A DNA stretch of 28,047 nt from Planctomycetota bacterium (lineage in GTDB: Bacteria > Planctomycetota > UBA8108 > UBA1146): assembly GCA_036338595.1 (NCBI GenBank), contig JAYZBV010000062.1, positions 1 to 28,047 of the forward strand, in the 5' to 3' direction. Position numbers and translations under genes: made by a program. Of this stretch, positions 2,116-23,796 are shown in pieces. Position 1 is the first letter of the stretch. Each line of letters opens with the position of its first letter. Under the pieces are notes generated by a model. The model ran no database searches, had not been told where the DNA came from, and saw nothing but the letters and a program-made list of their open reading frames with translations.

Positions 2116-2153
2116 AAAAGAAAAGGCTCCCCGATCTGCTTGATCGGGGAGCC
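2116..2153 (-). terminator. Rho-independent terminator of the cohesin/dockerin gene (may also serve hemL)
   Basis: Perfect 12-bp stem GGCTCCCCGATC (2125-2136) / GATCGGGGAGCC (2142-2153), 5-nt loop, followed on the minus strand by TTTTCTTTT. Confidence 0.9.
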
Positions 2154-2181
2154 CAGTATCGTCAGGAGTGACTGGCGATTT

Positions 2182-3438
2182 CTACAGGTCGTCTGCATCT
2201 CCGTCACAGCCGATGCCATCTCCGGTGGTCGGGTCAAGACCCGCTGTCGGGAAGGGAGCACTCGGCTCAGGTCCGTCGAGGAACCTGTAGTTGAAGATGA
2301 AGATGCAGTCAGCAGCATCGATGGTGCCATCGTCGTTGGAATCGCAAGCATCCTCACATGTCGGGACATTTGAAGAACCTGGATCAAACAACCAGTTGAT
2401 ACCAAAGATACCGTCAGCAATGTTCACCTGGTCATCACCGTTGCAGTCACTGCGGAGGAACTCGTTGAAGTTGACCACCGTCAGAGTACCGCCAACCAGT
2501 GTCGGCTGGCTGAGGAAGCCCTGTCCCGCCCAGACTGCGCAGTCCTGCGGAGGATTTCCGGCTCCGTCAACGAATCCGGTGTCCATCGACCCTTCGGCAG
2601 TGGTCATCCAGTCGACGCCGAAGAGAGCGGTTGTTGCTCCAGCAGGAATCTGGTTATCCAGAGTTCCGTCGCTTCCGAGGTCAGCGATCCCGCCGAATAC
2701 GATCGCACCAGGCGTGGTGGTGGGATCCTGAACAGCGAAGAACTCGAAGGCAAACATGGGCGTCACACCGGTCAGCATGGCGACAGACCCGTCGTAGCTC
2801 ACATTGACCTGCACCGCATCGATGGCGGGCATGGTGACATTGACGAGGCTCACCGTGGTTCCTGCCGCATTACCCAGCACCGCAGTCGAACTCGAGGCGG
2901 TGAACTGGTTGGGGTTGATCACATCCACCGTTCCGCAGTTCTGTGCCGGAGGAATACTGGCTCCACCGCTAACCACCACGGTGGCCACTGGAGGAGCTCC
3001 CTCGGAGTCACAGAAGCAGACACTGGCATCGTCGGCACCCGTGATGGTGTAGTCCATCGTCATCATTTCGAAACCGCTGACGATTCCAACCACTGCGCAT
3101 CCTGTGAAACAGAGCACGACTCCCTGAGTCGCTCCTGTCGAATACACACTGATCTGATCGAAGTCCGGCGTGCCACCGTCATTAGAGGTTGCTGTATCCG
3201 CACCCGACGTTGCGCCGTTGATAGTCAAGAGATCTGTTGGATGACAAACACCCATCGACCATCCTTGCACATCGGCGCCAATGTTATCCATGAGCGCTGA
3301 GAGGGTGACGTCATCTCCTGTGGAGCCTGCACCATCGGTCACCGTAAACGTGTAGTCGCCTCCACCAGCATTGGCAGTGGCAGTCACCGTGAAAGCGATG
3401 GCGAGTACCATCAAGCTAGTTATGAATTTGCGAAGCAT
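2182..3438 (-). CDS. Secreted protein with two cohesin-like beta-sandwich domains and a C-terminal dockerin-like domain
   Basis: ATG 3438 after GAAAGGA; Sec signal MLRKFITSLMVLAIAFTVTATANA; two ~145-aa modules with cohesin-like patterns (GDDVTLSALMDN..DVQGWSMGV...GTVDV; TTVSLVN...AIDAVQVNVSYDGSV...GGTLTV); tail with duplicated Ca-binding loops DCNGDDQVNIAD and DSNDDGTIDAAD. Gene certain; cohesin assignment by eye. Confidence 0.8.
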   Translation of the reverse strand: MLRKFITSLMVLAIAFTVTATANAGGGDYTFTVTDGAGSTGDDVTLSALMDNIGADVQGWSMGVCHPTDLLTINGATSGADTATSNDGGTPDFDQISVYSTGATQGVVLCFTGCAVVGIVSGFEMMTMDYTITGADDASVCFCDSEGAPPVATVVVSGGASIPPAQNCGTVDVINPNQFTASSSTAVLGNAAGTTVSLVNVTMPAIDAVQVNVSYDGSVAMLTGVTPMFAFEFFAVQDPTTTPGAIVFGGIADLGSDGTLDNQIPAGATTALFGVDWMTTAEGSMDTGFVDGAGNPPQDCAVWAGQGFLSQPTLVGGTLTVVNFNEFLRSDCNGDDQVNIADGIFGINWLFDPGSSNVPTCEDACDSNDDGTIDAADCIFIFNYRFLDGPEPSAPFPTAGLDPTTGDGIGCDGDADDL

Positions 3439-3856
3439 TTGCAAAGTTCCTTTCGCTGTCACTCCTGAGTGCCGAAACACCCGTATCACACCCCATGAAT
3501 TTCTATCGATGGAACAACACCTGTGTTCCTCTTCCGGAGAACTCCATCCAGCAAACTGCCTAGCAGGAGCATTCCGTTTTGCGACCCACAGAGCCGTGGG
3601 CCATCAAATCTCAACATTTCAGTCTCAGCAGACCTACCGGCCCACTATTTCAGGTGGGGAAAATGGCATGCACGCCTGGCCACGAATGACCCGCATCGCA
3701 CACCAACCCACCTCCTCGGAGTTCCCACTCGAACCCGATAATCCAGGTCAAGGAACTCCAGCCAGGACAGTGAACCCAATCGAGCAAGTGTCTCCCGGGT
3801 CGATCACCCGAAAATTGGCCAGATTGATTCGATCTGTCAGAACCCAAGCATCCTTG

Positions 3857-3884
3857 AGTATATCGACTTATCGGTCGTTGCCAA
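3857..3884 (-). promoter_or_regulatory. Putative sigma70-type promoter for the cohesin/dockerin gene
   Basis: Minus strand TTGGCA (3884-3879) - 16 nt - TATACT (3862-3857); the -35 box lies inside the inverted repeat TATCGGT-N11-ACCGATA (3869-3893). Confidence 0.5.
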
Positions 3885-4129
3885 GTACCGATAGCAAGCC
3901 AGGGAATGGAGGTAGGACACGGAAGAACCCCTGTTTGTGAGGACGGCCGCGCCCCCGATTCACCAGGACCTATCCGGAAAGGAGTGAGGAGTGAGGAGCA
4001 AACCAGACCCCAGCTCGCCGAACACACGACCGTTCTCGCAAACAGTTCTCGTGGACCACCTTATGAAACATATACTCTTCATCTCGCGGATCTCCGACTC
4101 CCCCATCAAACCGTGAAATTATTGCCTTG

Positions 4130-7100
4130 TCAATCCGCTTCACTACATACAAACTCCAGTAAATCGCGTATTTCATCCGCGGTCAGAGTCCAGTGGATCT
4201 CCGGCATCGCTGAAATCCCCGTGTCGGTCTCAAATCCCTCTACAAGGGCCGCTGAGGGGTCCACCAGGCTGCTCAAGATCTGCTCCCGGGATTGCCTGGC
4301 TCCGATTCCATCCAGTGCTGGACCGGCGACACCGCCGTTTCCCCGTAACGAATGGCACCTCAGACACTGAGCGACCGGATGGTCCAGAAAAATGTTCCGC
4401 CCGCGATCGATATTTCCACCAGCGAGAGCCCACTGATGGTCTGCGACCCGGTCTATCCCTTCCCCCTCCTGGATCCTGGCAGCGCGATTTTTGAGTTGCT
4501 CCGAGTCACTCATGCTTGCGGCGATCAGTACATCGAGATGCAACTCAGCCTCGAGATCATCCTTCTCGAGCGCATCGAGCCATGCTGTGAGAAGCGCTAT
4601 CGCCGAGGTCTCCTTCTCGGCTCCGATCGCCCGAATCGCTAACTGTCGAATCTCCATCTCGTTGGCATCAGTGGTCAATTGTTTCAGTTTTTGCACCCGA
4701 ACGCTCTGGTCCTCCTCGAATCGCTCCGCCTCGACACGAAGTGCCGCGATTCCTGCAGATCGAGCTCGACCCAGAGCGATTCCTGCATGTTCAGGATGAT
4801 GCTCGACGATCTGGCGCAGAGCCTGGATTCTGAATGAGGTTTGTTGTGAAGCGTCGGCAAGGATTGTCTCGTTGACCGACAGGGGAAGATCAATGCCGTG
4901 AACGCTGGCAACCTGTTGAGCAACGCCCGCCAGGTGATTTCCCTTTTGAATCAAATCCAGTAATGGGGCAGATATCTCGGATCGAATCGCCTCCGAACTT
5001 CTTGACGGTCCACCGTAGGGACGAATCGTACCCCTGACGAGGTCTCTCGGTCCTGGTTCTACCCAGTTGAGCACTGCCTCGATCGCCAGCCTCCCGGCCT
5101 TGCTCGGAATGTCATCGCGACCAGCAAGACTTACCAACGCAGCGGCATGCCTCGTATCTCCATGGCGCAAGGCCGCGTCGATCACTCTTCTCAGGTAGGG
5201 AAGTCGATGATCTCCCCTCCCCTTGATGGCATTCTTCTCTTGCAACAGCTGGTCGTATACCTGCTGCTGCGGTTTCAGTACTCGTCTTCCTACGGGGGAG
5301 AGTTGCTTCTTCCACCAGATTTCTAGATCCACTACGTCGCTGTTTTTCTCCGTGTTATCGCTACGTGTGGCGACGAGGGCTGCTCTGATCGGCGCCTCGA
5401 ACAGATCGGATGGGTTTTCACTCCAACGATCGACAAAGGCACGATAAGACCACAGGTCTGCGCGTTCTGTTGGGCGGCTACTTTTCCTGCGGACTCCTCC
5501 CCATTCGATTTTTCCACCTGTCTGGGTCATGGCGATTCCGAGCACCGTTTTCCCGGCCTCGATACCGATCTTCGAGGCATCGACCTGTAGCTGGACCCAT
5601 TCTCCGGTTGCAGGAAGATCTCCTTGGCGAAGGAGTGAAGGCTCGCCATCGGTGCCCTGGGGAAATGTAGTCACACCCCAGTAGGCACGGTGTTCCCAGA
5701 CGGTCTCGTCGTCGACGCGCACCTGGAAACACATCGATTTGGGCACCTCCAGGATCCTCACATCGATGTGGTAGGTATCTCCCTCGGCGACGACATGGGG
5801 GTGAAGCGACTGTTCGAAATAGACCTGGCGTATCTGACCCGCCGGAGCTTCTTGTCGGATCACCTGGTCGATCCCCTCGGGAGCAACCTCGGGAGCCTCG
5901 ACCCACGGCCAATCTCGCTGGCCTCCATCGGCCACCTCGACACAAAAAGGCGGCATCTGGCCGCTGAAGGCGATGACATCGAGCGTCGAGGATCCCGGAG
6001 AGACCTGTTCTGGTTCCCCAACCACCAGTTCTCGCGCGGTTGCATCGAGGATCGTAAGTGCTTCCTCGATCTTTTTCTTTGCCGCGACGTGTTGTTTCTT
6101 GTCGGCGATGCCCAGCATCGTTTTCAGCGCTCCGTCGGGAGCTCCGGAATGGAACAAAACACGATCTGCAAGAGTTGGCATTGCATCGAGCACGTATAGA
6201 TCATGAATAGCACGTGCCGCCTCCGTGGCGATCTGAGCATCCTCGTCGGCCAGGAACATCGAGATCACCGGATGAACACCGGGAGACTTACGCCCACCGT
6301 CTCCAACCGGATGAGCAAAGAGAAAACCAGGGTGATGTTTCTTGCGTAATGCCAGTAAAACAGCGAGACGTACCTCTCGATTGTCAGACGTCGCATAGTT
6401 CATCAGATCCTGTGGCTTCGCCGATCCGGCGAGCCCCATCACTGCGGCATGACGCAACAGCGGATCCAAAGGGCCATCGATGGCCGCCATCTCCATCAAG
6501 CGCTCGACCGCTTCCGGTACTCCGATGCGTCCGATCGCCAATGCAGCATGAAACTTGACCCGAGGAGCGGGGTCATCGAGCAAGCGAATCAGCGGGCTGA
6601 TCGGCCCACCTCGCAGGTCTCCCAGCACTCGAGCGACCTGCTCTCGAACCGCTGCATCCTCATCATCACAGAGCCTGGAGAGGGATTTCACCTCCTCAGA
6701 TGAGCCCATCCCCTCGACTCTCGCCCACTGCCCCACCCCCCAGATTCCGTGCCTACGTTCCCTCAGCCCCTCACCGTTGAGGGCTACATCCAGCAGCATG
6801 GCAACCGAGTTTCGATCACCCCCTGCCAGATGAAACTGAACTCTTTGACGCACTCTTCGATCCGGATGGGCCAGCAACTGACCGAGCTGCGAGGAAGGCA
6901 ACTGCTGGAGATCGGTGGTGAGCCAGTGACCCACACGATGTTGCTGGCTCTGCGCCTGACTTTCGGGATGCCACACCTCCATCAAACGGCCTCGGTCGGT
7001 AGAACCCCAACCTCCACCCCAGGCAGAGATCCACATCTTTCCATCCGGAGTGAAATCCACATCGGTGCAAAGCACCTTGTTGACGAATACTTGCGAATCT

Positions 7101-8386
7101 GCGAGTTGAAATCCGGCTCCATCCTGCTCGAGCCTGAATCTCCACACCGATGAATTGCCCGGACTGCCACGGAAGTCGCAGAGAAAGAAACTGTCTCGAT
7201 TCTCTTCTGGCAAGCCAGTTCCTGGATAGTGAACGAATCCAGAGGGACCACTGGTGAGGTGAGCGATCGGGGCCAGTGCCCACACCGGCCGCACGGGATG
7301 ATCGAGTTTCCAGATCCCCTCCTGATCCCAGGGACCCCGTCTGTTGGCACCTTCCAGCGACTGGTACTCCATTCGCCAGCCGGTTTCCCCGCCCCACACG
7401 ATCTGTACCAGTCGTGCTTTGTCTCCTGCATCGGAGTTGTTATCTCCTGTGAACAGGTCTCCTCGATCGTCGATTGCCAGCTCCTGAGGGTTTCTCAGCC
7501 CAACATGAACCACCTCCAGGTCGCTTCCATCCGGTTCACATCGAAACACCGCTCCCGATCCAGGATCGGCCAGCAATCTGCCGTCTGCAGTGGTGAGGTG
7601 ATAACCCCGGTCTCCAATTGACCAGTAGATCCTGCCATCCGGCCCACGAACCAGTCCATGCATGTCGTGACCACGAAATGCAACTCGAATACCGAATCCA
7701 CGTTGCAACGAGACGTGCTGCTCCGCCACACCATCATCATCAGCGTCTGTCGCCAACCACAGGTGCGGAATATTGGTGATCCAGGCCTTGCCATCTTCGA
7801 CCAGAACACCTGCCAGAGTTCCATCGAGTGGAGCCTCGTATTTTGGTGTGAAGAGATTTCTGGCATCCAGGATGCCATCTCCGTCGGTGTCGACGAGACG
7901 TGTTAGCCGATCATCGTTGGCGCTGTAGTAGTCCATCCCTCCCTGGCGACGATCCTTGTATTTCTCATACATCGCCATCCGATCGTCAACCGTCTGGAGT
8001 GCCAGATCATCGAGTAACCAGTAATGACTGGATCGATTGTCTTCCACTCCATTTTCTTGCCTCGCAGATTCGCACACATATGCGCGACCCCTTGCGTCGA
8101 TACCAAAGGCGACCGGATCTCGGACCAACGGCTCTGCAGCAACCAGGCGCTTCTCGAAACCAGCGGGGACCTCGAGAAGTTCCAGAGCAGACTGCGCTTC
8201 TCGTGGCCAACCGGGCTCCGGTTCATCGGAAGGACCTGGTGCTGGATCTGCTTCGGGCACCGGATCTGCTGGAGGAGCTGAGAACCCATCTCCTGCCTCG
8301 AGTTGAAGGGCCATCAGGGCCAGGAGCAGCAGCAGAAAGACAGCAGTAGCGCCATTATTGGTATGATTCGCGACAGACAAGGGCAC
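4130..8386 (-). CDS. PVC-type heme-binding CxxCH protein (glucose/sorbosone-dehydrogenase-like beta-propeller, HEAT repeats, cytochrome c) with a large internal insertion
   Basis: GTG start after GGAGG; signal peptide; LVAAEPLVRDPVAFGIDARGRAYV, GHDMHGLVRGPDGRIYWSIGD, GLRNPQELAIDDRGDLFTGDN; HEAT-like repeats (DEDAAVREQVARVLG, DPAPRVKFHAALAIG); C-terminal GRNIF...CLRCH...GPALDGIG...SLVDPSA...SAMP. Confidence 0.9.
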   Translation of the reverse strand: MPLSVANHTNNGATAVFLLLLLALMALQLEAGDGFSAPPADPVPEADPAPGPSDEPEPGWPREAQSALELLEVPAGFEKRLVAAEPLVRDPVAFGIDARGRAYVCESARQENGVEDNRSSHYWLLDDLALQTVDDRMAMYEKYKDRRQGGMDYYSANDDRLTRLVDTDGDGILDARNLFTPKYEAPLDGTLAGVLVEDGKAWITNIPHLWLATDADDDGVAEQHVSLQRGFGIRVAFRGHDMHGLVRGPDGRIYWSIGDRGYHLTTADGRLLADPGSGAVFRCEPDGSDLEVVHVGLRNPQELAIDDRGDLFTGDNNSDAGDKARLVQIVWGGETGWRMEYQSLEGANRRGPWDQEGIWKLDHPVRPVWALAPIAHLTSGPSGFVHYPGTGLPEENRDSFFLCDFRGSPGNSSVWRFRLEQDGAGFQLADSQVFVNKVLCTDVDFTPDGKMWISAWGGGWGSTDRGRLMEVWHPESQAQSQQHRVGHWLTTDLQQLPSSQLGQLLAHPDRRVRQRVQFHLAGGDRNSVAMLLDVALNGEGLRERRHGIWGVGQWARVEGMGSSEEVKSLSRLCDDEDAAVREQVARVLGDLRGGPISPLIRLLDDPAPRVKFHAALAIGRIGVPEAVERLMEMAAIDGPLDPLLRHAAVMGLAGSAKPQDLMNYATSDNREVRLAVLLALRKKHHPGFLFAHPVGDGGRKSPGVHPVISMFLADEDAQIATEAARAIHDLYVLDAMPTLADRVLFHSGAPDGALKTMLGIADKKQHVAAKKKIEEALTILDATARELVVGEPEQVSPGSSTLDVIAFSGQMPPFCVEVADGGQRDWPWVEAPEVAPEGIDQVIRQEAPAGQIRQVYFEQSLHPHVVAEGDTYHIDVRILEVPKSMCFQVRVDDETVWEHRAYWGVTTFPQGTDGEPSLLRQGDLPATGEWVQLQVDASKIGIEAGKTVLGIAMTQTGGKIEWGGVRRKSSRPTERADLWSYRAFVDRWSENPSDLFEAPIRAALVATRSDNTEKNSDVVDLEIWWKKQLSPVGRRVLKPQQQVYDQLLQEKNAIKGRGDHRLPYLRRVIDAALRHGDTRHAAALVSLAGRDDIPSKAGRLAIEAVLNWVEPGPRDLVRGTIRPYGGPSRSSEAIRSEISAPLLDLIQKGNHLAGVAQQVASVHGIDLPLSVNETILADASQQTSFRIQALRQIVEHHPEHAGIALGRARSAGIAALRVEAERFEEDQSVRVQKLKQLTTDANEMEIRQLAIRAIGAEKETSAIALLTAWLDALEKDDLEAELHLDVLIAASMSDSEQLKNRAARIQEGEGIDRVADHQWALAGGNIDRGRNIFLDHPVAQCLRCHSLRGNGGVAGPALDGIGARQSREQILSSLVDPSAALVEGFETDTGISAMPEIHWTLTADEIRDLLEFVCSEAD

Positions 8387-8474
8387 CTCCTGATCCTCCC
8401 GAATGGGGAGGCGATGCTGCTGTCATAGAAACAGCATCCGCTCCGGTCAAGGGGAGGCCTGTCGCCAATGGCAA

Positions 8475-8509
8475 GGAAAAAGCCCCGACCGAATGAACTG
8501 CCGAGGCTT
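8475..8509 (-). terminator. Rho-independent terminator after the giant HYR gene
   Basis: Minus strand AAGCCTCGGC-N10-GTCGGGGCTT (10 bp, two G-U pairs) running into a T tract, ~30 nt after the stop at 8538. Confidence 0.75.
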
Positions 8510-8537
8510 CTTATCAGGAACTGCAAATATACAACCC

Positions 8538-11500
8538 TCAGGGGCAGTGCTGGTAGAGTTCACACACCAGTGAATCCTCTGTCGGATCCAGCCCACAGGT
8601 ATCAAAGGGAGGCGGAGGAGGCGGTCCACCCTGGAACAAGGTATTGAAGTGGTGAATCGCATCCGAGATGTCTATGTTTCCACTGTCATTGCAATCGAGT
8701 GCATCATGGCAGTCTGATGTAGTCCCGAGGAAGATGTACCCGATGATCACGATGGCGTCAGAGATATCCACTGCGCCGTCATCATTGGCATCCCCTCGAA
8801 CGAAATCGGAGAAACACTCCTCCACGATGACGGTAAAGCTACCAGAGGAACTGTTTCCAGATGCATCGGTGGCGGTCACCAATACCTCGGTCACTCCGAC
8901 CGGGAACTCACCTCCCGATGGTACGGAAGAAGTGATCGTTCCTCCCGAACAGTTATCGATGAACTCCAGCGGAGCCCAGGTCACGGAAGCAGTACATGTA
9001 CTCGGTGCCGGCGTGGCGATGATGGTGCCTGGGAGGTTCACGATCTGTGGGAACTCTTCATCATTGATAACGAGCAGCATTTCTGATGTCGCAGAGTTTC
9101 CATGGACATCTGTGGCGGTGAAGGTGATCTGGGTCTCCCCGATACCGAAAAATGTGCCGGATACAGCACTCACGTCTGTCGATGCCACGCCACAGTTATC
9201 CTCGACAAGAGGAGCTACCCAGAACACTGTCGCTCCGCATTGACCGGAGTCTGTTGAAACGGTCATCAAGGGAGCCACACCCGAGATGGTGGGATCCTCT
9301 TGATCGTTGACCGTGATGTTGAAGGACGCTTGAGACTGGTTGCCGTGAATATCAACCGCAGTGAGAGTCACCACGGTATCCCCAGGTGCCAGGAACGATC
9401 CGCTCAGTAATGAACTGACCACGGAGTCGAGGTCGCTACAATCCGTAACCAGTGGTTCTTCCCACGAGACCAGTGCCCCACAGGCTCCCGGATCATTGCT
9501 GAAGACGAGATCGCTCGGAACCAATGAGATGGTCGGCGACTCAACATCTTGAACCGTGATCGTGAAGGACTGTGTGCCAGTATTCCCCTGATCGTCTGTC
9601 GCCGTGTAACTCACGGTATGCAAGCCGATGGGAAACTGGCTATCCGGTGTGGCAGAACTCTCCAGTGTTACCGTCGAGCAATCCGTGGCCGTCGGAGGCA
9701 CCCAGTTGACCAGCGCAGTGCAACTTCCAATGGGAGCATCGACGACGATGTCCGATGGCATCCCATCGAGAGTCGGCGCCTGGGCATCGATTATGGTGAT
9801 CTGCGTGACCATGCTGGCACTGTTACCGGATTCATCCGTCGCGGTGTGGGTCACTTCCGTGAGGCCGATCGGAAGCTGTGAACCCGGGGAATGGCTGCTG
9901 GTGGCAGTTGCGCTTCCGCACAGATCTCCTGCCAGTGCTGGATCCCATGTAGCCGTTCCGACGCACAGTCCCGGTGTCGTATCAAAGGTCAGTTGCGAGG
10001 CAACATTGGTGAAGAATGGCGCTTCAGTATCGAGGATCGTGACATCGAAGCTCGCTTGACTGGTGTTTCCTGCTGCATCGACTGCGGTGTAGGTCACCAG
10101 GGTGGTCCCGACCTGGAAGATGCTTCCACTGGTCGAATCTCCGGTCATCGCCACGCTTGAACAGTCAGTGGCGATCGGAACCGTCCAGATTGCAACCGCT
10201 GAACACTGCCCAGGGCTGTTGTCCAGGACAAGCGATGCAGGCACCTGGCTGATCGTTGGCGGACCCGCATCGAGCACGGTCACCTCGAAAGTGGCAGTGG
10301 AAGAGTTGCCCGCACCATCGGTCGCGAGGACCGTCACCGTCGTGGTACCGATGGGGAACTCCGATCCACTTGCGTGATCCGTTCCCAGCGAAGAAATCCC
10401 GGTGCAATCACTCGCTGTGGAGCTACCCCATGTTGCGATTCCTGTACAAGCTCCTGGTGACGAATCCAGGGTGATGTCGGCGGGAATGGTGTCGATCTGC
10501 GGCGATTCCACATCCAGAACTGTGACCGTGAAGCTGGCCGATGAGCTGTTACCCGCTGGATCGATGGCACTGTAGATGACTACCGTATCGCCGATCGGGA
10601 ACGATGCTCCGCTGGAAATATTGCTGCTCATCAGATGGGATACGCAGTCGAACCCTGTCGGTTCTTCCCAGCTGGCAGTCGCCTCACAGGCACCTGCTGG
10701 AGCTTCCAGGACGATGTCCGCTGGCATGTTCTCGATCAATGGGGCATCGATATCGAGAACCGTGATATCGAAGCTGGTCAGGGTCTGGTTCCCATTGGTG
10801 TCGGTCGCCGTGTACACCACTGTGGTGACCCCGACGAGGAACTGGGAGCCGCTGGGGAAGTTGGTTTCAAGAGCGCTGAAGGTGCAATCCGTCGTCGTCG
10901 GTTCCGTCCATACAACCATCACACCGCAACTTCCTGCACCGTTATTGACCGTGATGTCCGCGGGAGTTCCGGATACCTGAGGAAGTTCTCCATCGAGGAT
11001 GGTCACCAGGATGCTATCTGAAGATGAGTTTCCGTGATCATCCGTGAAGGTGAAGTTGACGATGTGATTGCCGATCGGGAGTGTGCCTCCATTGGTCAAG
11101 TCGGATGTCATCGTGAAAGCAGAGCAATCGCTCGCCGCTGGCAGTGTCCATGTCGCCGCTGCTTCGCACGAATCGCTCGCCGTCGTGACAAACACGTCCT
11201 GGGGCATCAGTTCAATCGTGGGTGGCGTCGAATCGACCACCACCACCGTGAACGTGCTGACGATCTGGTTGAGCGCATCATCCTGACAGGTGTAAGAGAC
11301 CAGCGTTTCACCGATGGGAAACAAATCACCCTGTTGATGCGAGGAAGTTACGGATGGAATTGCCGTACAGTTGTCAGCGAACACCGGGCTATCCCATACA
11401 CCAGGAAGTTCGCAGGCACCTGTAGGATTTTCTATCACCACCTGGGTCGGCGGTCCCGACAATTGAATCGGATTCTCGGAATCAGTGACCACCACCGAGA

Positions 11501-14500
11501 AAGTGGCATTGGTGCTGTTGTTGGCCTGGTCGGTAGCCGTTGCAGTGATAACAGTCGTACCGAGCGGGAAGGAGGATCCAGGGATATGGCTGTAGGAGAT
11601 CGTCACCGCTGAGCAATGATCATCGGCAGTCGCCTCTGCCCAGGTCATCGTTGCAGCACAAGTGCCTGGTGCAGTGTCTGCTGTGAGCCCGGATGGAGTC
11701 GATGTGATCTGAGGCGCAATCTCGTCCACAACAGTGACAGTGAAAGATCCCGTCGATTGGTTTCCTGTCGGATCAGTGGCAGTGTAGGTCACCACCGTGT
11801 CACCGAGAGAAAATTCTGACCCGCTGGCATGAGTAGAACTCAGTGTCGCTGAGTCGCAATCCTGAGTCGTGGGCTCGGACCATGTGGAGATAGCAGAGCA
11901 GGCACTTGCATCCGTCCCAACCGACCTATCCAGGGGTAAAGAGAGGATCTGAGGGAGTTCGATGTCAGTTACGTTGACATTGAATGAGAGGATCGCTGTA
12001 TTTCCTGCATCATCGGTACAGGTGTAGGTCACCGTGCTCGTACCCATGTTGAAAGTAGTGCCTGAGACATGGCTCGATGTGAGAGAGACCGCACCGCAAA
12101 GATCTACTGCTGTGGGTTCTGTCCATGTGGCAATCGCTGTACACAAGCCTGCTTCCGACGAGAGTTGGATGTCGGCGTGGGTGGAAGTGAATGTGGGTGA
12201 TTCCTGATCGAACACGGTGATGGTGAAACTCTGTGAGCTTTCATTGAGCGCCGAATCGGTGCTTGTGTATGTCACGACGGTATCACCGATGGGGAACACA
12301 TCCCCGGGATTGTGGCTGACCTGAAAAGTCGCCGGCTCACAGTGATCGAGGACGGTCGGATGATCCCAGAAGATCGAGGCGTCACAATTCCCCGGCAAAC
12401 AGGGAGCGGACTGGTCGAGCGGCATATTGAAGAAACCCGGAGCTTCGGTATCGCTGACATTGATGTCGAAGGTCTGCGTCGCCACATTCCCGCTATCATC
12501 TGTTGCGGTGTAGGTCACCGTCGTCGTCCCCAGAGCGAAGAACTCTCCTGGAGCATGGCTCTGGATTGTCGTGGGTGGCGTGCAATCATCCGTGGCCACC
12601 GGCTCGGTCCAGAACACCTGAGCGGAGCAGAGCCCCAACGATGTTCCAACATCGAGATTTGCTGGAGCAGTATCAAATACTGGCGGGCTGGCATCGCTGA
12701 CCGTGACAAGAAATGTATGGAGCGTCGTGTTCAGGGAGTCATCGACGGCAGTGTATGTCACTGCAATGACTCCAATTGGAAGCACTGCACCTGGGTCCAC
12801 GGTTGACGATAGGGCTGAAGCCCCACAGTCATCGATCACCGTAGGGGGAGCCCAGTTTGCGATCGCAGTACATTCTCCTGGATCAGTCACCAGGGTGAGA
12901 TCAGCCGGTGGATTGACGAGAGTGGGTGGAATTCCATCGGTCACCGATACCGAGAAAGTCATCGTGGTCGATTTTCCATGGATATCGGTAGCGACGTAGG
13001 AGACTTGCTGAACACCAATCGGGAAGACCGAGCCAGACACATGGGAAGATGTCAGTGTCACGGAAGTGCAATCAATGGCAACGGGCTCTTCCCAGGTCAC
13101 CACTGCTTCGCAGGCTAGCGAAGATGTGACCACTTCGACCAATCCCGGAGAACTGACGAACTGGGGGAAGTCGTTGTCCAGCACGGTGACCGAGAAACTC
13201 TCTATCGTCTCATTTCCAGAAGGGTCCGATGCGGTGTAAGTGACCGTTGTGGTACCCACACCGAAGGTTGACGGGGGGTCAAAACTGCTATTCACCGCCG
13301 TCACTCCACAACTATCCGTCACGATCGGCGCTGGCCAGTCCACCGTCACTCCACACTGTCCCGCCAGTGGCGTTAGCGTCAAGTCAGTGGGCAGACCGCT
13401 GATGACAGGCGGGACTTCATCGATCAGAGAGATTTGAAAGCTCATCTGAGATGAGTTCCCGGCACTGTCGACTGCGGAGTAGGTCACTGTTCTACCCGCG
13501 GGGGTAATCAGCGCAGGCGAGGGGGGATTCGAGATCATGGTCACGCTCGAGCAATCAGTGACCAGGGGGTCACTCCAGGACGCTCCCGCTGAGCATCCCG
13601 CTCCAACTGGATTGACCGTTATATCTGGAAGTTGTTCCATCACAGGAGCAGTTCCATCGACCACGGTCACCACGAAACTCTGAGAAATCGAGTTGCCCGA
13701 ACCATCCGTCGCCGTAGCCGTCACCGTGGTGGCTCCCAGCGGGAATATATGGCCCTGGGGGAAATCAGTGGTGACAGCGGGGAATGAGCAGTTATTCGCA
13801 TCGAGCGCAAACGGTGCCGGCCATGAGACACTTCGTTCGCAGGTATTCGCATCAGCACTAGATGTGATGTTTCCTGGAACCGAGATGAAAAATGGGGGAT
13901 CTGGTTCCAGAATAGTCACCAGAAAGCTCAACTCACTTACATTCCCTACATCATCGGTAGCCGTGTAGGTGACTGTGGTCGAGCCAGAGAGAAACAGGTC
14001 ACCAGAAGCATGGCTTCCAACCAGAGAGACTGCAGAACATTCATCTGTAGCACTCGGTGGAGTCCAGGTTACTGCAGACTCGCACTCCCCACTGGGAATG
14101 TTGATGGTGATGTCCGTTGGCATTCCAGTGATCACAGGAGCCAGCGTGTCGTAGGCGATGCCAGCCAGAGCATCACAACTATCAGGGATCAAGTTTCCGT
14201 TACAGTCAGATTCGGTTCCTGCGACGATCTCGCAACTATCCACCAGATTGTTGCCGTTGCAATCGAGACCACCTGAACTGATATCGCAACTGTCTGGTAC
14301 TCCATTGGCATTGCAGTCGACCGCTGCGCCCTGAGCAATCTCACAAGGGTCAAGGATGCTATTTCCGTTACAGTCCATCGTTCCGGTTGCAAAATCACAA
14401 CTATCCGGAATGCCATTGCCGTTGCAGTCCGGCAACCCCCCCGCCATGTCGCAACTATCCAGAACCCCGTTTGAGTTGCAATCGGTGAAAAGGAGAGTGC

Positions 14501-15581
14501 CAAGAAAACGTGCTCCTGATGTTGTAGCGACGAGCGCTGTGCCTCCTGACAGTGACAAGATGCTAGATCCCGTCCCTGCTGGAATCGGCACACACGGTTC
14601 GAGTGCACTGAAACTCTCGATCAGGAAACCAGAATCCCAGCCAGAAGCCGACCTTGAGAATAACTTCAGCCCACAAGTGGTCGTGACCAGCGCCCTGGCT
14701 CCAGAAATCTCCATCGGTCCATCGACAGCTTCAGAAAAAATCAGCGCCGTCTCGGGAGCCCAGCCTCCTGGACCACGGAGGAACACATTGGCTCCCAGTG
14801 GCGAAGGCAACAACAAGCGCAATTCTCCAGCAGATTGATCGAGACTGAGATGGGTACCGGAGGCGACGGCAAGAGGATGCGTTGCATCCAGGCTCCACTG
14901 GTTCAGCGCCAGTCCCTGGTACTCGAAGGTCAACACCTGTCCGGCTGTCGGAGCAGAGATGCTCACATAACCGCCGCTCATCGAAATCTCGGTACCAAAT
15001 GCGTCTCCGGGTACTCCCAGCACGGTTCCAGCGGGAATCCATGTCGGCGCACCACCGCCATCGAAAACTCGAGTGTAGAAGTATGTCTCATCTGTGCCCG
15101 GAGAGCCTACAGCAAGTAAATCTCCTGAGTGTCCCACTGCAGAACCCCAACCAGGGTCAGCAGAGCCAGAGATGGCCCCATCGATGACCGTGTCCAGGGT
15201 CCAGGAGATCCCGTCATGGAGATGGAGCTGGACTTCTCCAGAGAGACCTAACACCAGATCTGAGCCCTCGAGTCCAATCGAGAGCAAGGTTGCTCCTGCC
15301 AGATCGATGCTTTGTTCCAGCAACCAGCTTCCGGTGGTGCGATCAAACAGTTCGACGCTGGATCCATCGCTGGAAACCGCGCGTTGACCATCGATCACTG
15401 CAAAGCTAGTAGATGATGCGACCCCGAGGAGTTCGGAGTCGATGACGCACTGAGCCCAAACATGGCCAGGAAGGCCAGCGGCGAAGGCAGTGAGCAGCAA
15501 GAGAGTTCGCAACACCGTTGTGAAACTCGCAGCGAAACGAGCACACCTAACACCCCTACGGGTTGTAGATTCATGAGACAT
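8538..15581 (-). CDS. Giant secreted adhesin-like protein: FG-GAP-like propeller, 6 DCNxNG repeats, 22 HYR domains, C-terminal dockerin-like domain
   Basis: ATG 15581 is 7 nt after GGGGAG (ORF track extends to TTG 15596); signal peptide ending VWA-QC; WGSAVGHSGDLLAVGSPG and FGTEISMSGGYVSISAP blades; HYR consensus DxxxPxxxxxPxD...W..P.A.D.C...G..FP.G.T.VTYTATD..GN....F.VTV; tail FVRGDANDDGAVDISD...DCNDSGNIDISD. Confidence 0.92.
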   Translation of the reverse strand: MSHESTTRRGVRCARFAASFTTVLRTLLLLTAFAAGLPGHVWAQCVIDSELLGVASSTSFAVIDGQRAVSSDGSSVELFDRTTGSWLLEQSIDLAGATLLSIGLEGSDLVLGLSGEVQLHLHDGISWTLDTVIDGAISGSADPGWGSAVGHSGDLLAVGSPGTDETYFYTRVFDGGGAPTWIPAGTVLGVPGDAFGTEISMSGGYVSISAPTAGQVLTFEYQGLALNQWSLDATHPLAVASGTHLSLDQSAGELRLLLPSPLGANVFLRGPGGWAPETALIFSEAVDGPMEISGARALVTTTCGLKLFSRSASGWDSGFLIESFSALEPCVPIPAGTGSSILSLSGGTALVATTSGARFLGTLLFTDCNSNGVLDSCDMAGGLPDCNGNGIPDSCDFATGTMDCNGNSILDPCEIAQGAAVDCNANGVPDSCDISSGGLDCNGNNLVDSCEIVAGTESDCNGNLIPDSCDALAGIAYDTLAPVITGMPTDITINIPSGECESAVTWTPPSATDECSAVSLVGSHASGDLFLSGSTTVTYTATDDVGNVSELSFLVTILEPDPPFFISVPGNITSSADANTCERSVSWPAPFALDANNCSFPAVTTDFPQGHIFPLGATTVTATATDGSGNSISQSFVVTVVDGTAPVMEQLPDITVNPVGAGCSAGASWSDPLVTDCSSVTMISNPPSPALITPAGRTVTYSAVDSAGNSSQMSFQISLIDEVPPVISGLPTDLTLTPLAGQCGVTVDWPAPIVTDSCGVTAVNSSFDPPSTFGVGTTTVTYTASDPSGNETIESFSVTVLDNDFPQFVSSPGLVEVVTSSLACEAVVTWEEPVAIDCTSVTLTSSHVSGSVFPIGVQQVSYVATDIHGKSTTMTFSVSVTDGIPPTLVNPPADLTLVTDPGECTAIANWAPPTVIDDCGASALSSTVDPGAVLPIGVIAVTYTAVDDSLNTTLHTFLVTVSDASPPVFDTAPANLDVGTSLGLCSAQVFWTEPVATDDCTPPTTIQSHAPGEFFALGTTTVTYTATDDSGNVATQTFDINVSDTEAPGFFNMPLDQSAPCLPGNCDASIFWDHPTVLDHCEPATFQVSHNPGDVFPIGDTVVTYTSTDSALNESSQSFTITVFDQESPTFTSTHADIQLSSEAGLCTAIATWTEPTAVDLCGAVSLTSSHVSGTTFNMGTSTVTYTCTDDAGNTAILSFNVNVTDIELPQILSLPLDRSVGTDASACSAISTWSEPTTQDCDSATLSSTHASGSEFSLGDTVVTYTATDPTGNQSTGSFTVTVVDEIAPQITSTPSGLTADTAPGTCAATMTWAEATADDHCSAVTISYSHIPGSSFPLGTTVITATATDQANNSTNATFSVVVTDSENPIQLSGPPTQVVIENPTGACELPGVWDSPVFADNCTAIPSVTSSHQQGDLFPIGETLVSYTCQDDALNQIVSTFTVVVVDSTPPTIELMPQDVFVTTASDSCEAAATWTLPAASDCSAFTMTSDLTNGGTLPIGNHIVNFTFTDDHGNSSSDSILVTILDGELPQVSGTPADITVNNGAGSCGVMVVWTEPTTTDCTFSALETNFPSGSQFLVGVTTVVYTATDTNGNQTLTSFDITVLDIDAPLIENMPADIVLEAPAGACEATASWEEPTGFDCVSHLMSSNISSGASFPIGDTVVIYSAIDPAGNSSSASFTVTVLDVESPQIDTIPADITLDSSPGACTGIATWGSSTASDCTGISSLGTDHASGSEFPIGTTTVTVLATDGAGNSSTATFEVTVLDAGPPTISQVPASLVLDNSPGQCSAVAIWTVPIATDCSSVAMTGDSTSGSIFQVGTTLVTYTAVDAAGNTSQASFDVTILDTEAPFFTNVASQLTFDTTPGLCVGTATWDPALAGDLCGSATATSSHSPGSQLPIGLTEVTHTATDESGNSASMVTQITIIDAQAPTLDGMPSDIVVDAPIGSCTALVNWVPPTATDCSTVTLESSATPDSQFPIGLHTVSYTATDDQGNTGTQSFTITVQDVESPTISLVPSDLVFSNDPGACGALVSWEEPLVTDCSDLDSVVSSLLSGSFLAPGDTVVTLTAVDIHGNQSQASFNITVNDQEDPTISGVAPLMTVSTDSGQCGATVFWVAPLVEDNCGVASTDVSAVSGTFFGIGETQITFTATDVHGNSATSEMLLVINDEEFPQIVNLPGTIIATPAPSTCTASVTWAPLEFIDNCSGGTITSSVPSGGEFPVGVTEVLVTATDASGNSSSGSFTVIVEECFSDFVRGDANDDGAVDISDAIVIIGYIFLGTTSDCHDALDCNDSGNIDISDAIHHFNTLFQGGPPPPPPFDTCGLDPTEDSLVCELYQHCP
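8823..14150 (-). repeat. Protein-level tandem array of 22 HYR domains (~81 aa each)
   Basis: Counted manually from DTLAPVITG to SFTVIV; each unit keeps a C-x5/6-W and a D-(x)-C cysteine; units are strongly diverged at DNA level. Confidence 0.88.
14151..14483 (-). repeat. Six 18-19-aa DCNxNGxxDxC repeats (Asp/Cys-rich, probably Ca-binding)
   Basis: DCNSNGVLDSCD, DCNGNGIPDSCD, DCNGNSILDPCE, DCNANGVPDSCD, DCNGNNLVDSCE, DCNGNLIPDSCD. Confidence 0.88.
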
Positions 15582-15834
15582 CGATTTTCTCCCCAAACAC
15601 TGTTCCTTGTCGGTATAAAGTCACCAGCGGCATCCAATGTATTGATTTGTATTGAATCAGCAACTCTCGGGGGCGATTGTCAGAAAGTAGAGTGTTGTCA
15701 TTGAAGAGTCCTTATTGGTCGATTAGTTCCAAAATTTGGCGGCTCTTCAATGCTGCTCTCGACCGGGAAGTGAGAAGCGGCTAGGCTGCGCCGCTTCCCT
15801 CGATCGTGACCAGGGAGTGATCATTGAGAGGACT

Positions 15835-15908
15835 GTCCCCGTAGCTCAGCTGGATAGAGCATCGGATTCCTAATCCGGAGGTCGCAGGTTCGAATCCTGC
15901 CGGGGACG
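15835..15908 (+). tRNA. tRNA-Arg(CCT)
   Basis: Acceptor GTCCCCG/CGGGGAC, D arm GCTC-AGCTGGATA-GAGC, anticodon arm TCGGA-TTCCTAA-TCCGG (CCT at 15869-15871), T arm GCAGG-TTCGAAT-CCTGC; discriminator G, CCA not encoded. Confidence 0.97.
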
Positions 15909-16155
15909 CTTTCACGGATTGAGTTCGATGAGTGACCCGATCCCCGGTTCACCACGCGCCTCAGGCAACTGCTCCGAGTCTCCAATTATTGCCGGGTTTG
16001 TGCTGCTGGAACTGACTTTCTAGTACCAATATCGATATCCGAGTGAGACCGATCTGTGAATTGGCGTTAGAATTCTGGTGTGCTTGAAACAGCTCCTCCA
16101 GCCGCCTCGGCCCACTGTGACGCGCCCGTAGCGATGGCGACCCACTCCCTGCACT

Positions 16156-16809: not shown

Positions 16810-18201
16810 ATGGAACAGATCCAAATACCAGCGCAACATCCAGGGACTGAAAAACTGCTGCCTACCATGGCGCTAATTCTCGTCTTCCTGTCGAGTTGTA
16901 TTTCGTCGCCTGGTGTCTATCAGCCACCGATGGAAACTCTTCTCCCCCGAGACTTCGGCGCATTTGAAAGTTCGAGGGTGATCGAGCCCGGGCAGCGTGA
17001 ACCCGCAGACACGCTGACACTCCAGGATGCCCTGTCGCTTGCCATGAGCCACAACCCGGAGCTCTCCGCCTCGTCCTGGAGAGTCGATGCCAGCAAGGCA
17101 CGCACCCTGCAAGCAGGATTACGTCCGAATCCACAGATCGAAGGTGAAGTGGAGAACTTTGCAGGAAGTTCCACTCTTGGCGGTTTCGATGAGGCAGAGA
17201 CCACCATTGCACTGAGTCAGTTGTTCGAACTCGGGGATAAGAGAAGAAAACGACTCCGAGTCGCGGAACTGGGTCAAGGACTTGCCGAATGGGACCTCCA
17301 GGCGAAGCGGCTGCAGCTCATCTCGCAGACATCGTTAGCCTTCATCGAGGTGCTCGCCGCACAGCAAAGGGTAGAACTTCAGTCAGCAAGTCTCGATCTT
17401 GCCCGTGAAGTACTGAACTCCGTTTCCGAGCGAGAAAATGCAGGAAAGAGTTCTCCCATCGAAACCATCCGCGCCCAGATCGTGGTTTCTCAGGGCGAAA
17501 TTTCTCTCGGCCGAGCGCGCCGTTCCCTCGATGCATCCCGAGCGTTGCTGGCAGCGAACTGGGGAAGTGATTCTGCACGGTTCACATCAGCCATTGGATC
17601 TCTGGATGAAACCCCGGACCTTCCATCGCTTGACAGTCTCAAGGCAAGGATCAGCAATAATCCAGATGTCTCCCGCTGGAATGTCGAGATCGCCCAACGA
17701 AGCGCTCGAATTGAACTGGCATCTGCCGAGGCCACTCCAGACGCAACCATCACCGGCGGTGCCCGGCTTCTTCAGGGTACCCAGGAAACCGCATTCGTCG
17801 TCGGCCTGTCGATTCCACTCCCCATCCATGACCGCAACCAGGGGCGCATCAGGGAAGCAGAAATTGATCTTTCGAGGGCGACCGATGAGCGCCGAGCTGC
17901 AGAGATTCGAGTCCACTCTGCCCTGATCGATGGATACCAGTCGCTACTCTCCTCGTTCCAGGAAGTCACCGCTCTTCGCGAGAAGGTTCTTCCCGCCGCC
18001 GCAGCCGCCTATGAAGGAATTCGCGAATCGTACCGTCAGGGGAAACTGACCCAACTCGATGTCCTGGACTCACAGAAGACGCTATTCGAGGTCAGGGATC
18101 AGTACGCGAGATCCCTCACTGATTACCACCGAGCCCGCGCTCTGGTCGAAGGCCTGGTGGGAACACCCATTTCCGAACTGAAGAATGGAGGCCTCCGATG
18201 A
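16810..18201 (+). CDS. czcC: Outer membrane factor (TolC/CzcC family) of a heavy-metal RND efflux system
   Basis: Lipobox-like LSSC; LTLQDALSLAMSHNPEL, QAGLRPNP, LSQLFELGDKRRKR, VGLSIPLPIHDRNQGRI, YRQGKLTQLDVLDSQKTL; GAGGA RBS; first gene of a C-B-A operon. Symbol denotes family only. Confidence 0.9.
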   Translation: MEQIQIPAQHPGTEKLLPTMALILVFLSSCISSPGVYQPPMETLLPRDFGAFESSRVIEPGQREPADTLTLQDALSLAMSHNPELSASSWRVDASKARTLQAGLRPNPQIEGEVENFAGSSTLGGFDEAETTIALSQLFELGDKRRKRLRVAELGQGLAEWDLQAKRLQLISQTSLAFIEVLAAQQRVELQSASLDLAREVLNSVSERENAGKSSPIETIRAQIVVSQGEISLGRARRSLDASRALLAANWGSDSARFTSAIGSLDETPDLPSLDSLKARISNNPDVSRWNVEIAQRSARIELASAEATPDATITGGARLLQGTQETAFVVGLSIPLPIHDRNQGRIREAEIDLSRATDERRAAEIRVHSALIDGYQSLLSSFQEVTALREKVLPAAAAAYEGIRESYRQGKLTQLDVLDSQKTLFEVRDQYARSLTDYHRARALVEGLVGTPISELKNGGLR

Positions 18202-19424
18202 AAATCAATCTGGCACTGACAGGCCTGTTGTTTCTGCTCATGGGAGTTCCAGGTTGCTTCCCAAAGGAACAGCCCAAGGAAGTACCACCGCAGAAGCCCA
18301 TCTCTTTCATGGATGCACTGTCGGCGCCACCGACTGATCAGGTGGATGAGATCCATCCTGACGATGTGCACATCACAGAAGCTCAGATGAAAGAATTTGG
18401 GATCGAGGTAATGGTAGCTGCTGCGGCCACGCTCTCTCTGGAGATTCAACTCCCGGGTGAAATAGTGGCCAATGCAGATCAGTTGGTGCACATCGTACCG
18501 AGCGTTCCCGGTATCGTCAGTGAGGTCAAGAAGCGCATCGGTGATCAGGTAACCGCTGGAGAAGTGCTGGCGACCCTCGACAGCCGAGAACTTGCCGCCG
18601 CCAAATCGAAATTTCTCGCCTCGACCGCCCGAGTGGGACTCGCTCAAACAACGCTGGTGCGAGAACAGAACCTCTGGGACAAGTTGATCGGGTCCGAGCA
18701 AGAGTATCTCGAGGCCAAAACTGCCTTCGAGGAGGCGAGTATTGCGCTTCGAGATTCAAAGCAGGCGCTTCATGCCCTCGGTCTGTCCGAGACAGATGTC
18801 CAGACACTGCCGGATGAGCCGGACACCGAGTTGACCCGTTTCGAGATGCGCGCACCGCTTGCAGGAGAAATCATCGAACGCCATCTGGTTCGGGGTGAGA
18901 TGCTCAAGGATGACTCTCAGGCGTTCGTCGTCGCAAACCTGGATACCGTCTGGGTCAACCTGGCGGTCTATCAGAAGTATCTGCCATCTGTCCGGATCGG
19001 GCAGACGGTTCGAGTCTTCCCGGGTAATGGTGTGAAAGAGCAAGAGGGGAACATCTCCTACCTCAGTCCTTTCCTCGAGGAGCAGACGCGTACCGCAACT
19101 GCTCGGGTCGTGCTCGAAAACGATGGCGGGCAACTTCGCCCAGGGCTATTCGTCACCGCAGTGATCCTCACGGGAGAACTCGCTGTTTCAGTCGCCATCC
19201 CGAAGAGCGCCATCACTGAAATCGAGGGGAAAAAGCACATCTTCATCAAGTCGGACCACGGATTCGCACCCAGGGCAATTCGCACGGGACGCTCTGATGG
19301 TGTGCTCGTTGAAATCACGGAGGGACTTTCTGCGGATGAGGCGTACGCATCCGAGGGCGTATTCTCACTCAAATCAGAACTTCAAAAAGAAGACTTTGGC
19401 AGTGGTCACGGCCACGCGCATTAG
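18198..19424 (+). CDS. czcB: RND periplasmic adaptor subunit (CzcB/CusB family)
   Basis: ATGA overlap with the upstream stop; lipobox-like VPGC; GDQVTAGEVLATLDS, RAPLAGEIIER, VANLDTVWV, TRTATARVVLEN...LRPGLFV; His-rich end GHGHAH. Confidence 0.92.
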   Translation: MKINLALTGLLFLLMGVPGCFPKEQPKEVPPQKPISFMDALSAPPTDQVDEIHPDDVHITEAQMKEFGIEVMVAAAATLSLEIQLPGEIVANADQLVHIVPSVPGIVSEVKKRIGDQVTAGEVLATLDSRELAAAKSKFLASTARVGLAQTTLVREQNLWDKLIGSEQEYLEAKTAFEEASIALRDSKQALHALGLSETDVQTLPDEPDTELTRFEMRAPLAGEIIERHLVRGEMLKDDSQAFVVANLDTVWVNLAVYQKYLPSVRIGQTVRVFPGNGVKEQEGNISYLSPFLEEQTRTATARVVLENDGGQLRPGLFVTAVILTGELAVSVAIPKSAITEIEGKKHIFIKSDHGFAPRAIRTGRSDGVLVEITEGLSADEAYASEGVFSLKSELQKEDFGSGHGHAH

Positions 19425-19436
19425 AGGAGAAAGAAG

Positions 19437-23762: not shown

Positions 23763-23796
23763 GTTTCCTCCCGGGCCAGTGGCCCCGCAGCTTATC

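Follow-up and report, generated by a model that had tools for sequence, protein, structure and literature searches.

Predicted cohesin-dockerin adaptor and giant dockerin-tagged protein of a planctomycete as members of a genome-wide repertoire of plug and socket modules

The window analysed here is the whole of contig C62 (JAYZBV010000062.1 of assembly GCA_036338595.1), a stretch of 28,047 bp from a 2.91-Mb planctomycete genome that consists of 114 contigs and is 88% complete and 7% contaminated. It includes two genes in the same orientation whose products end in the same type of tail: a small one, named here the adaptor gene, coding for a signal peptide followed by two cohesin-like modules and a dockerin-like tail, and a giant one coding for an adhesin-like protein (Table 1). 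The adaptor ORF spans nucleotides 2182-3489 (-) with a likely ATG start at 3438, and the closest adaptor homologue is also 418 amino acids long. The giant ORF spans nucleotides 8538-15596 (-) and its likely start is the ATG at 15581. An earlier interpretation made from the DNA without database searches, the sequence-only reading, had taken both products as exported proteins of a local non-cellulosomal cohesin-dockerin system composed of a scaffold and its client, in a probable planctomycete. The host assignment agrees with the names of the homologues that carry one, which are those of 'Planctomycetota bacterium', and the 16S gene bears what we take to be the planctomycete probe signature. A record with a 92% identical adaptor was labelled Bacillota by its submitter, which conflicts with the planctomycete names of the other homologues.

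Table 1. Location of the features in the 28,047-bp window.
Feature	Position	Strand	Remarks
Terminator-like hairpin	2124..2154	-	13 bp with T tail, directly 3' of adaptor gene
Adaptor scaffoldin gene	2182..3438	-	418 aa from likely ATG 3438; signal peptide-cohesin-cohesin-dockerin
Adaptor dockerin	2185..2469	-	Two calcium loops, helices, Pro/Cys-rich extension; PF00404 23.4 bits; Z 10.9 to 5m2o_B
Cohesin 2	2476..2919	-	Z 17.4, rmsd 1.9 over 135 residues to 6kgc_A
Cohesin 1	2920..3360	-	Z 17.5, rmsd 2.0 over 135 residues to 4uyp_A (structure match)
Predicted Sec signal peptide of adaptor	3367..3438	-	24 aa, A-x-A end, no lipobox; sequence and hydrophobicity heuristic
DUF7133/HEAT/cytochrome c gene between adaptor and giant	4130..8386	-	Not shown as system member
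Giant dockerin-tagged adhesin-like gene	8538..15581	-	2347 aa from likely ATG 15581
Giant's dockerin	8541..8816	-	47% identical to adaptor tail; Pfam 19.5 bits, below cut-off
HYR stalk	8817..14150	-	22 repeats, conserved Cys pair in each; Pfam and script
Cys/Asp-rich repeats, about six	14151..14489	-	Probably calcium-binding; five by pattern, one by eye
Beta-propeller head, FG-GAP-like	14490..15455	-	28 strands in model, pLDDT 88.8
tRNA-Arg(CCT)	15835-15909	+	Immediately upstream of giant gene
RND efflux operon (OEP, HlyD/CusB-like, AcrB-like)	16810-22520	+	No link to cohesin-dockerin finding
DUF6599/DUF362/polyferredoxin/aldo-keto reductase cluster	22533-27787	-	No link to cohesin-dockerin finding

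A model of the adaptor built on a 67-row alignment (pLDDT 93.5) was compared by structure against 48,161 solved chains. The top 20 rows were all cohesin entries, and for both N-terminal modules the matches to cohesins, a fold of the nine-stranded jelly-roll type, exceeded those to pilin and adhesin folds (Z 11 or less). The tail matched the dockerin 5m2o_B with an rmsd of 1.4 over 71 residues, and also 4fl4_A and 2ccl_B. A Foldseek search placed the ScaA-type cohesin dyad 3l8q at the top, with two-domain proteins of the integrin and antigen I/II types interleaved among the rows. By the folds of the predicted model, the modules of the adaptor are assigned as two putative cohesins and a dockerin, as had been proposed; since the two N-terminal modules match cohesins, a reading of them as unrelated carbohydrate-binding module (CBM) or Ig domains does not apply. 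Cohesin 2 is divergent, with 17% identity to cohesin 1, and adjoins the dockerin without a linker. A profile-profile comparison related it to the cohesin 1 family at 99.8%, and its paralogues, none of which was found with cohesin 2 as a lone query, appeared only with a profile. The cohesin 1 family profile matches solved cohesins with a best E of 2e-9; the adaptor as a single sequence gave weak dockerin matches only against the PDB.

The adaptor and giant tails share 47% identity over 81 amino acids (E 5e-17), in line with the common tail domain noticed earlier. Each includes two 12-residue loops with D, N or S at positions 1, 3, 5, 9, and 12. The calcium-loop columns are conserved over the 145 tails found in the genome (see below), helices are present in the adaptor model, and the dockerin tail of this genome has in addition four conserved cysteines and a proline-rich extension. 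The tail family profile matches solved dockerins (best E 5e-7). The comparison with Pfam families suggested along with the sequence-only reading had a split outcome: against the Dockerin_1 cut-off of 22.9 bits the adaptor tail lies above and that of the giant below, and Cohesin (PF00963) did not match the adaptor at E 0.01. PF00963 matches 2 of the 45 other cohesin-bearing ORFs of the genome, and precomputed PF00963 matches are present in 11 of 88 homologues. In a Pfam scan at E 1e-4 of 142 ORFs with these modules (two short fragments were left out and the two window proteins were scanned separately), Dockerin_1 was listed for 9 and Cohesin for 2, and it is because so few are recognized that the system escapes annotation. 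A complex prediction for cohesin 1 (70-row alignment) and the giant's dockerin (110 rows), carried out for one pairing with no controls folded, scored 0.13 versus a mark of 0.32 and speaks neither for nor against their binding.

The giant protein has the 22-HYR stalk and the propeller tip described in the sequence-only reading. Of these repeats 21 were identified by Pfam and script and the first one (residues 483-563) by eye. For the propeller head the best Foldseek rows were WD40-type propellers (TM up to 0.71), and the atlas neighbours were FG-GAP_2 with a score of 0.93, a recognition that is below the reliable mark. A heuristic flagged neither a lipobox nor an inner transmembrane (TM) helix in the adaptor or the giant, and Pfam found no SLH, sortase or glycoside hydrolase family in the 16 ORFs of the window, as had been stated for the pair and its surroundings.

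The genome-wide count of the tail, which had been recommended, was carried out with an iterated profile over the ORFs of this genome. It revealed 145 tails in 143 ORFs on 62 of the 114 contigs, and the tail-bearing ORFs represent about 10% of the bases. While 137 tails are C-terminal, the other eight are N-terminal or internal, which is consistent with a binding module. The cohesin family comprises 73 modules in 46 ORFs, 43 of which also bear a dockerin. When the domain orders of the resulting 146 ORFs are considered together, a dockerin is the sole module of the two kinds in 100. One cohesin is combined with one dockerin in 19 ORFs and with two dockerins in two, 22 combine a dockerin with two or three cohesins (21 of them have nothing else), and in three a cohesin stands without a dockerin; two of these last three are cut by the end of their contig and are similar to a paralogue that ends in a dockerin. 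Nine adaptor genes form a cluster on contig C15, and 14 cargo proteins are enzyme-cohesin fusions. As read from the sequences, a subunit would carry one plug (the dockerin) and zero to four sockets (the cohesins), and a predicted lipid anchor would mark those that have no plug. Such a polarity, deduced from domain order, is the main ground for an anchor-adaptor-cargo tree. The small protein of the window carries its own dockerin and is thus an adaptor and not the root of a scaffold, the place it had been given earlier; the anchor would be encoded elsewhere, as a lipoprotein with an Ig stalk and a terminal cohesin. The proposal of a local scaffold-plus-client system therefore holds for the cohesin and dockerin folds but not for its extent, which is genome-wide and class-wide. 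We consider it fairly probable that the two window genes belong to a genome-wide set whose products form a branched cohesin-dockerin network rooted in lipid at the cell surface.

Lipoproteins with Ig stalks are the likely anchors of the system, judging from their predicted domains. A cohesin ORF of contig C84 combines a lipobox with three He_PIG repeats and ends in a cohesin, with no dockerin; the only other Ig-stalk anchor found in this genome is a cut fragment on contig C26. The C84 query matches 22 of 31 genomes, namely 17 of the 18 others of the family and four of the six of the order, but none of the six beyond. All 16 Ig-stalk ORFs fetched from nine relatives have a terminal cohesin, no dockerin and 3 to 30 repeats, and 15 have a lipobox (125 residues were examined in each); one further match that was fetched (L102) is without a cohesin. 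In five relatives (L096-L099, L101) a three-gene unit was observed that consists of a short Ig-stalk anchor, a long anchor (12-30 repeats) and a cohesin protein, the latter with a dockerin in all four complete copies. A second candidate anchor is L011 (C15:37328-42559), a 1,744-amino acid predicted lipoprotein with Ig, FG-GAP, weak cohesin, TIG, and dockerin domains that ends the run of nine adaptor genes. In G042, a closed genome from another family, 32 of the 33 cohesin ORFs have a dockerin (20 called by profile, 11 by adjacent coordinates or sequence, and one by eye), and in the remaining one (L116:1939-3459) a lipobox-like Cys accompanies an inner TM hairpin. The same genome has a locus (L122) in which three dockerins and two cohesins alternate, and about 25 of its 150 listed dockerin frames are 1,800-1,880 amino acids long and may represent an expanded family.

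The cargo identified by Pfam includes 16 FG-GAP propellers, seven P-domain proteins, and HYR, PKD, cadherin, and lectin proteins. Among the enzymes are two M4 and one M12 peptidase, two purple acid phosphatases and an endonuclease I, as well as five CCP_MauG and two DHOR haem proteins, a PQQ dehydrogenase (GSDH), two arylsulfotransferases (ASST) and a penicillin amidase. No Pfam family was assigned to 69 of the 142 scanned ORFs, many of them adaptors. A glycoside hydrolase or CBM family was found on none of the 142 (38 were also scanned by NCBIfam), nor was CBM3, SLH or a sortase family found by Pfam, which agrees with the non-cellulosomal setting that had been proposed. GH5 and GH9 had no match in the whole genome, with controls matched in 6 of 14 and 1 of 14, respectively; GH48 had no match in the genome nor in the controls and is hence uninformative. 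Other tagged products are a 2,061-amino acid MnxG-like multicopper oxidase (L031, C47:1692-7874; NCBIfam 885 bits, below the equivalog cut-off) and a frame with five haem motifs on contig C49.

The tail is present in all 31 relatives examined, where its matches number from 59 to at least 150 and the first-look candidates reach 526, and the cohesin family in 59 of 59 genomes of the class, with 12 to at least 66 matches. When 251 genomes sampled from the phylum were searched with the profiles from this genome, with 15-20 candidates per genome scored, both profiles saturated in all 14 class members; outside the class the tail was found in 6 and the cohesin in 2 of 237 genomes, with one to six matches each. 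This distribution shows a class-specific subtype, and not that other dockerins are absent elsewhere.

An N-terminal hydrophobic stretch was found in 121 of the 146 ORFs, 16 are cut by the contig at the 5' end, and few inner TM helices were indicated by the heuristic. The genome has five secretins and an operon of the GspD-E-F-pseudopilin type, whose GspE is above the NCBIfam cut-off. Type II secretion exports folded proteins and lipoproteins such as PulA and MtrC, and the network is probably exported by this route. The exosortase family PF09721 had no match in this 88% complete genome (control matched in 1 of 14). A possible role of the mesh as a substitute for peptidoglycan was discarded, Mur ligases being found in 31 of 31 genomes. 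Contigs 90-99% alike are found in four marine or vent RNA libraries, where they cover the adaptor gene in all four runs, although DNA in the libraries is possible. The C15 adaptor cluster, which was not used to choose the runs, has 15-29 of 30 bins covered; three further runs (X5-X7) had no word match. These contigs provide no ranking of genes, and gaps over the middle gene of the window are uninformative. In three runs the contigs stop at 2156-2161, near the adaptor hairpin, a weak hint as one of the ends has adapter sequence.

The folds of the models, the counts, the domain orders and the distribution were computed, and from them we infer binding and location as follows. The subunits would cross the inner membrane via Sec, acquire disulfides, haems and calcium as they fold in the periplasm, and exit by type II secretion. 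Lipoprotein anchors with a lipobox, 3-30 Ig repeats and one terminal cohesin would set sockets at fixed distances from the membrane; adaptors, with one plug and one to three sockets, would plug into the anchors and multiply the sockets; and the branches would end in about 100 cargo proteins that have a plug but no socket. An HYR repeat is about 4 nm long, and the giant may position its propeller about 80 nm out. The few two-plug proteins could cross-link branches, and assembly would proceed by calcium-dependent cohesin-dockerin binding. Display of tagged adhesins and enzymes, the role suggested in the sequence-only reading, is the likeliest one: the purpose is likely the attachment to particles or cells and the processing of proteins, phosphoesters, nucleic acids and metals at the surface, and not cellulose breakdown. 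The FG-GAP, lectin, cadherin/PKD, M4/M12 and MnxG-like oxidase families found among the cargo fit a surface location.

Several observations weigh against this model. Di-haem peroxidases, arylsulfotransferase, penicillin amidase and PQQ dehydrogenase are usually periplasmic, and the presence of such families among the cargo makes the location less certain. The same dockerin type also terminates an anti-sigma factor that has one TM helix, which puts some dockerins on the periplasmic side. If the parts were to assemble in the periplasm ahead of their export, they would block the secretion channel unless assembly is delayed, and no brake on it was identified. Branching may be limited by specificity groups: cohesins cluster by position within the protein, and some scaffold dockerins differ in their helices from the rest. 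With the C84 query, none of the six genomes from four other families yielded the Ig-stalk anchor, and adaptor orthologues occur in four genera where the head of the giant was not found. Some of the ORFs counted are second copies at 55-80% identity, some copies come from contamination, and contig C93, 87% like another genus, is a probable contaminant, but cleaner congeners have 120 to at least 150 tail matches. The unassigned ORFs and a few beta-helix proteins could possibly hide polysaccharide activity. The dockerin tree is poorly resolved (the careful search was unfinished), with 90 of 140 inner branches open and two scaffold clades as the only clean groups.

The same network could be located inside an enlarged periplasm, on inward-facing lipoproteins, and there organise redox enzymes and hydrolases. 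The default orientation of lipoproteins is towards the periplasm, and this compartment can be wide in planctomycetes, two points that would suit this arrangement, as do the di-haem and other redox cargo, the penicillin amidase and the anti-sigma dockerin, whose gene adjoins one for an ECF sigma factor. The latter pair was observed on contigs C33 (L021:1-858) and C93 (L069), where the zinc-finger anti-sigma factor has a TM helix and a degenerate dockerin; the anti-sigma dockerin matches 14 of 31 genomes and is full-length in at most 12 other genomes of the family. However, stalks of 22-23 HYR and up to 30 Ig repeats suit the outside better, as do the lectin and cadherin domains, the thermolysin-type proteases with propeptides and the MnxG-like oxidase, and a type II secretion operon is present; we regard the periplasmic location as unlikely. 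It is also quite unlikely, in our opinion, that the tail is mainly a tag for export or retention with one or few receptors and that most of the cohesin modules are spacers comparable to X modules, with no branched network. The predominance of C-terminal tails with a uniform motif would be expected of a tag, and many cohesins adjoin the tail directly in position-specific clades, but eight tails are placed otherwise and 21 proteins contain nothing besides a tail and two or three cohesins. Furthermore, a secretin-cohesin fusion that could serve as tag receptor was looked for and rejected, as none of the five secretins of the genome matched the cohesin profile (their tails have 16-69 amino acids, and one of 319 looks helical by eye). 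The first-look counts of cohesins and dockerins per Mb correlate among 31 related genomes (rho 0.49), with the limits that the counts are loose and kin are not independent.

The two window genes could instead be a dedicated pair in which the adaptor is the specific scaffold of the giant, since they share contig, strand and a spacing of about 11 kb in 17 of the 22 relatives that have both (in the other five they are on different contigs of fragmented assemblies). This linkage is part of a larger conserved block, with a neighbouring aminotransferase kept in six of six loci and the efflux genes in the two where the locus extends that far, and so it does not prove dedicated partners. Between the two lie an unrelated gene and a gap of 640 bases, and the adaptor gene is followed by a terminator-like hairpin of its own. 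The giant resembles ordinary cargo, its dockerin being of the generic cargo type, and orthologues of the giant are found in 23 of 59 class genomes, from three genera, whereas the adaptor is present in genera with no detectable giant orthologue. A dedicated pair is therefore considered very unlikely. Even more remote is a true cellulosome with unrecognized glycoside hydrolases, which we judge extremely improbable: the multi-cohesin scaffoldins, the type I-like folds and the number of ORFs with no Pfam family would be in agreement with it, but no glycoside hydrolase or CBM family was found on the 142 ORFs scanned and GH5 and GH9 have no match in the genome.

The lipid-rooted surface network that we favour can be compared with known systems. 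Complex cellulosomes (Acetivibrio cellulolyticus ScaB/ScaC, Ruminococcus flavefaciens ScaC, Pseudobacteroides cellulosolvens) have the same cohesin and dockerin folds and the same anchor-adaptor-cargo logic, with both monovalent and polyvalent adaptors as defined in the accessible text of PMC11557425. For P. cellulosolvens, the accessible part of PMC5590126 gives 78 cohesins on 31 scaffoldins, and upwards of 200 ORFs with a dockerin, as compared with 73 cohesins on 46 ORFs and 143 dockerin ORFs here. Unlike those systems, the present one belongs to a diderm, its scaffolds are short (one to three cohesins) and nearly all have a dockerin, its anchors are predicted lipoproteins, and the dockerin has the four conserved cysteines and proline-rich extension. 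Of the features that define a cellulosome it has multi-cohesin scaffoldins (the 22 ORFs with two or three cohesins), but neither dockerin-fused glycoside hydrolases nor CBM3 nor SLH or sortase anchoring was detected by Pfam in the 142 ORFs, 69 of which have no family. The non-cellulosomal cohesins of Clostridium perfringens (2vo8, 2w1n) and Archaeoglobus fulgidus (2xdh) match the fold with Z 14.6-16.1, and their enzyme-cohesin fusions resemble those of the 14 cargo proteins. These systems are small, with a few genes each, and are not known to show a class-wide expansion.

The 'planctosome' of freshwater Nemodlikiaceae (Andrei et al. 2019, PMC6461901) is, according to the accessible part of that paper, a hypothetical non-cellulosomal complex holding peptidases, modelled with four kinds of part: an anchor with a lamin tail, P-domains, TSP3 repeats and a cohesin, an adaptor of the Doc-HYR-Coh type, and two dockerin-tagged peptidases (M12B and M14). 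Its host is likewise a planctomycete, and HYR, P-domain, M12B and lamin-tail domains are also found among the cargo here; as far as that text goes, the present system differs by its approximately 140 parts, its lamin-tail domain on a nuclease and its lipoprotein anchor. In the 88% complete genome no cohesin ORF matched LTD or P_proprotein, the domains that a planctosome-type anchor would carry. Three HYR proteins have a dockerin and none has a cohesin of this family, and the dockerin-tagged peptidases are the one M12 and two M4 enzymes, with no catalytic M14 listed. The profiles of this genome seldom match outside their own class, and the Nemodlikiaceae, we assume, belong to another one. Ca. 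Stygibacter (Cloacimonadota) is another uncultured non-Firmicutes bacterium with a non-canonical, genome-inferred cohesin-dockerin complex that includes peptidases; the accessible text of PMC8542988 describes one 3,755-amino acid multi-cohesin scaffoldin that also bears CBMs and, at its C-terminus, an attachment domain, as well as cargo of the GH18/GH57 families; none of these features was found here. A cellulosome survey across RefSeq counted on the presence of a dockerin-fused hydrolase as a requirement (PMC11557425, accessible text), the main text of a Planctomycetota CAZyme survey (two versions) is silent on dockerins and cohesins, and the accessible part of a preprint on giant Omnitrophota genes deals with other dockerin-rich proteins. 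Our literature search, which extended to neither subscription papers nor the planctosome supplements, found no account of this system.

As for the rest of the window, the gene between the adaptor and the giant gave neither a dockerin nor a cohesin in the tail and cohesin profile searches or by Pfam. Its residues 758-1045 (window about 5250-6115, -) are a 290-amino acid insert that is missing in all six orthologues fetched and shares 68% identity with a portion of a contig C104 gene; it represents either a recent domain capture or an assembly chimera. In the gap upstream of the adaptor gene (3439-4130) the RNA-library contigs extend from the gene to nucleotide 4047, a possible long leader, and no Rfam match was found there. 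Promoter-like sites are at chance level (4 versus 5.9 expected).

A more far-reaching extension, tentative and in our view rather doubtful, is that in this whole class of uncultured planctomycetes the outer coat is a hyperbranched mesh of proteins that assembles by itself and is switched by calcium, seeded by lipid anchors of graded length (3-30 Ig repeats) and branched by adaptors with one plug and many sockets. Equally speculative is the picture of a coat held together by two-plug cross-links and covered by about 100 adhesin and enzyme caps, the state of which the dockerin-tipped anti-sigma factor may sense. If true, the coat would be the largest non-cellulosomal use of cohesin and dockerin, structural as well as enzymatic. 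Cohesin-dockerin assembly at scale is known only from the cellulosomes of Gram-positive anaerobes, and here a diderm with a small genome spends about one tenth of its DNA on tagged proteins, in numbers near the cellulosome record, of which standard Pfam annotation recognizes less than one tenth. The predicted lipoprotein anchor fills the main gap of the model, that is, how the complex would be held on a diderm cell, and gives a testable hierarchy. The divergent, cysteine-stabilized modules could serve as orthogonal parts for designer enzyme complexes, and the cargo gives hints as to how these marine bacteria may attach and feed.

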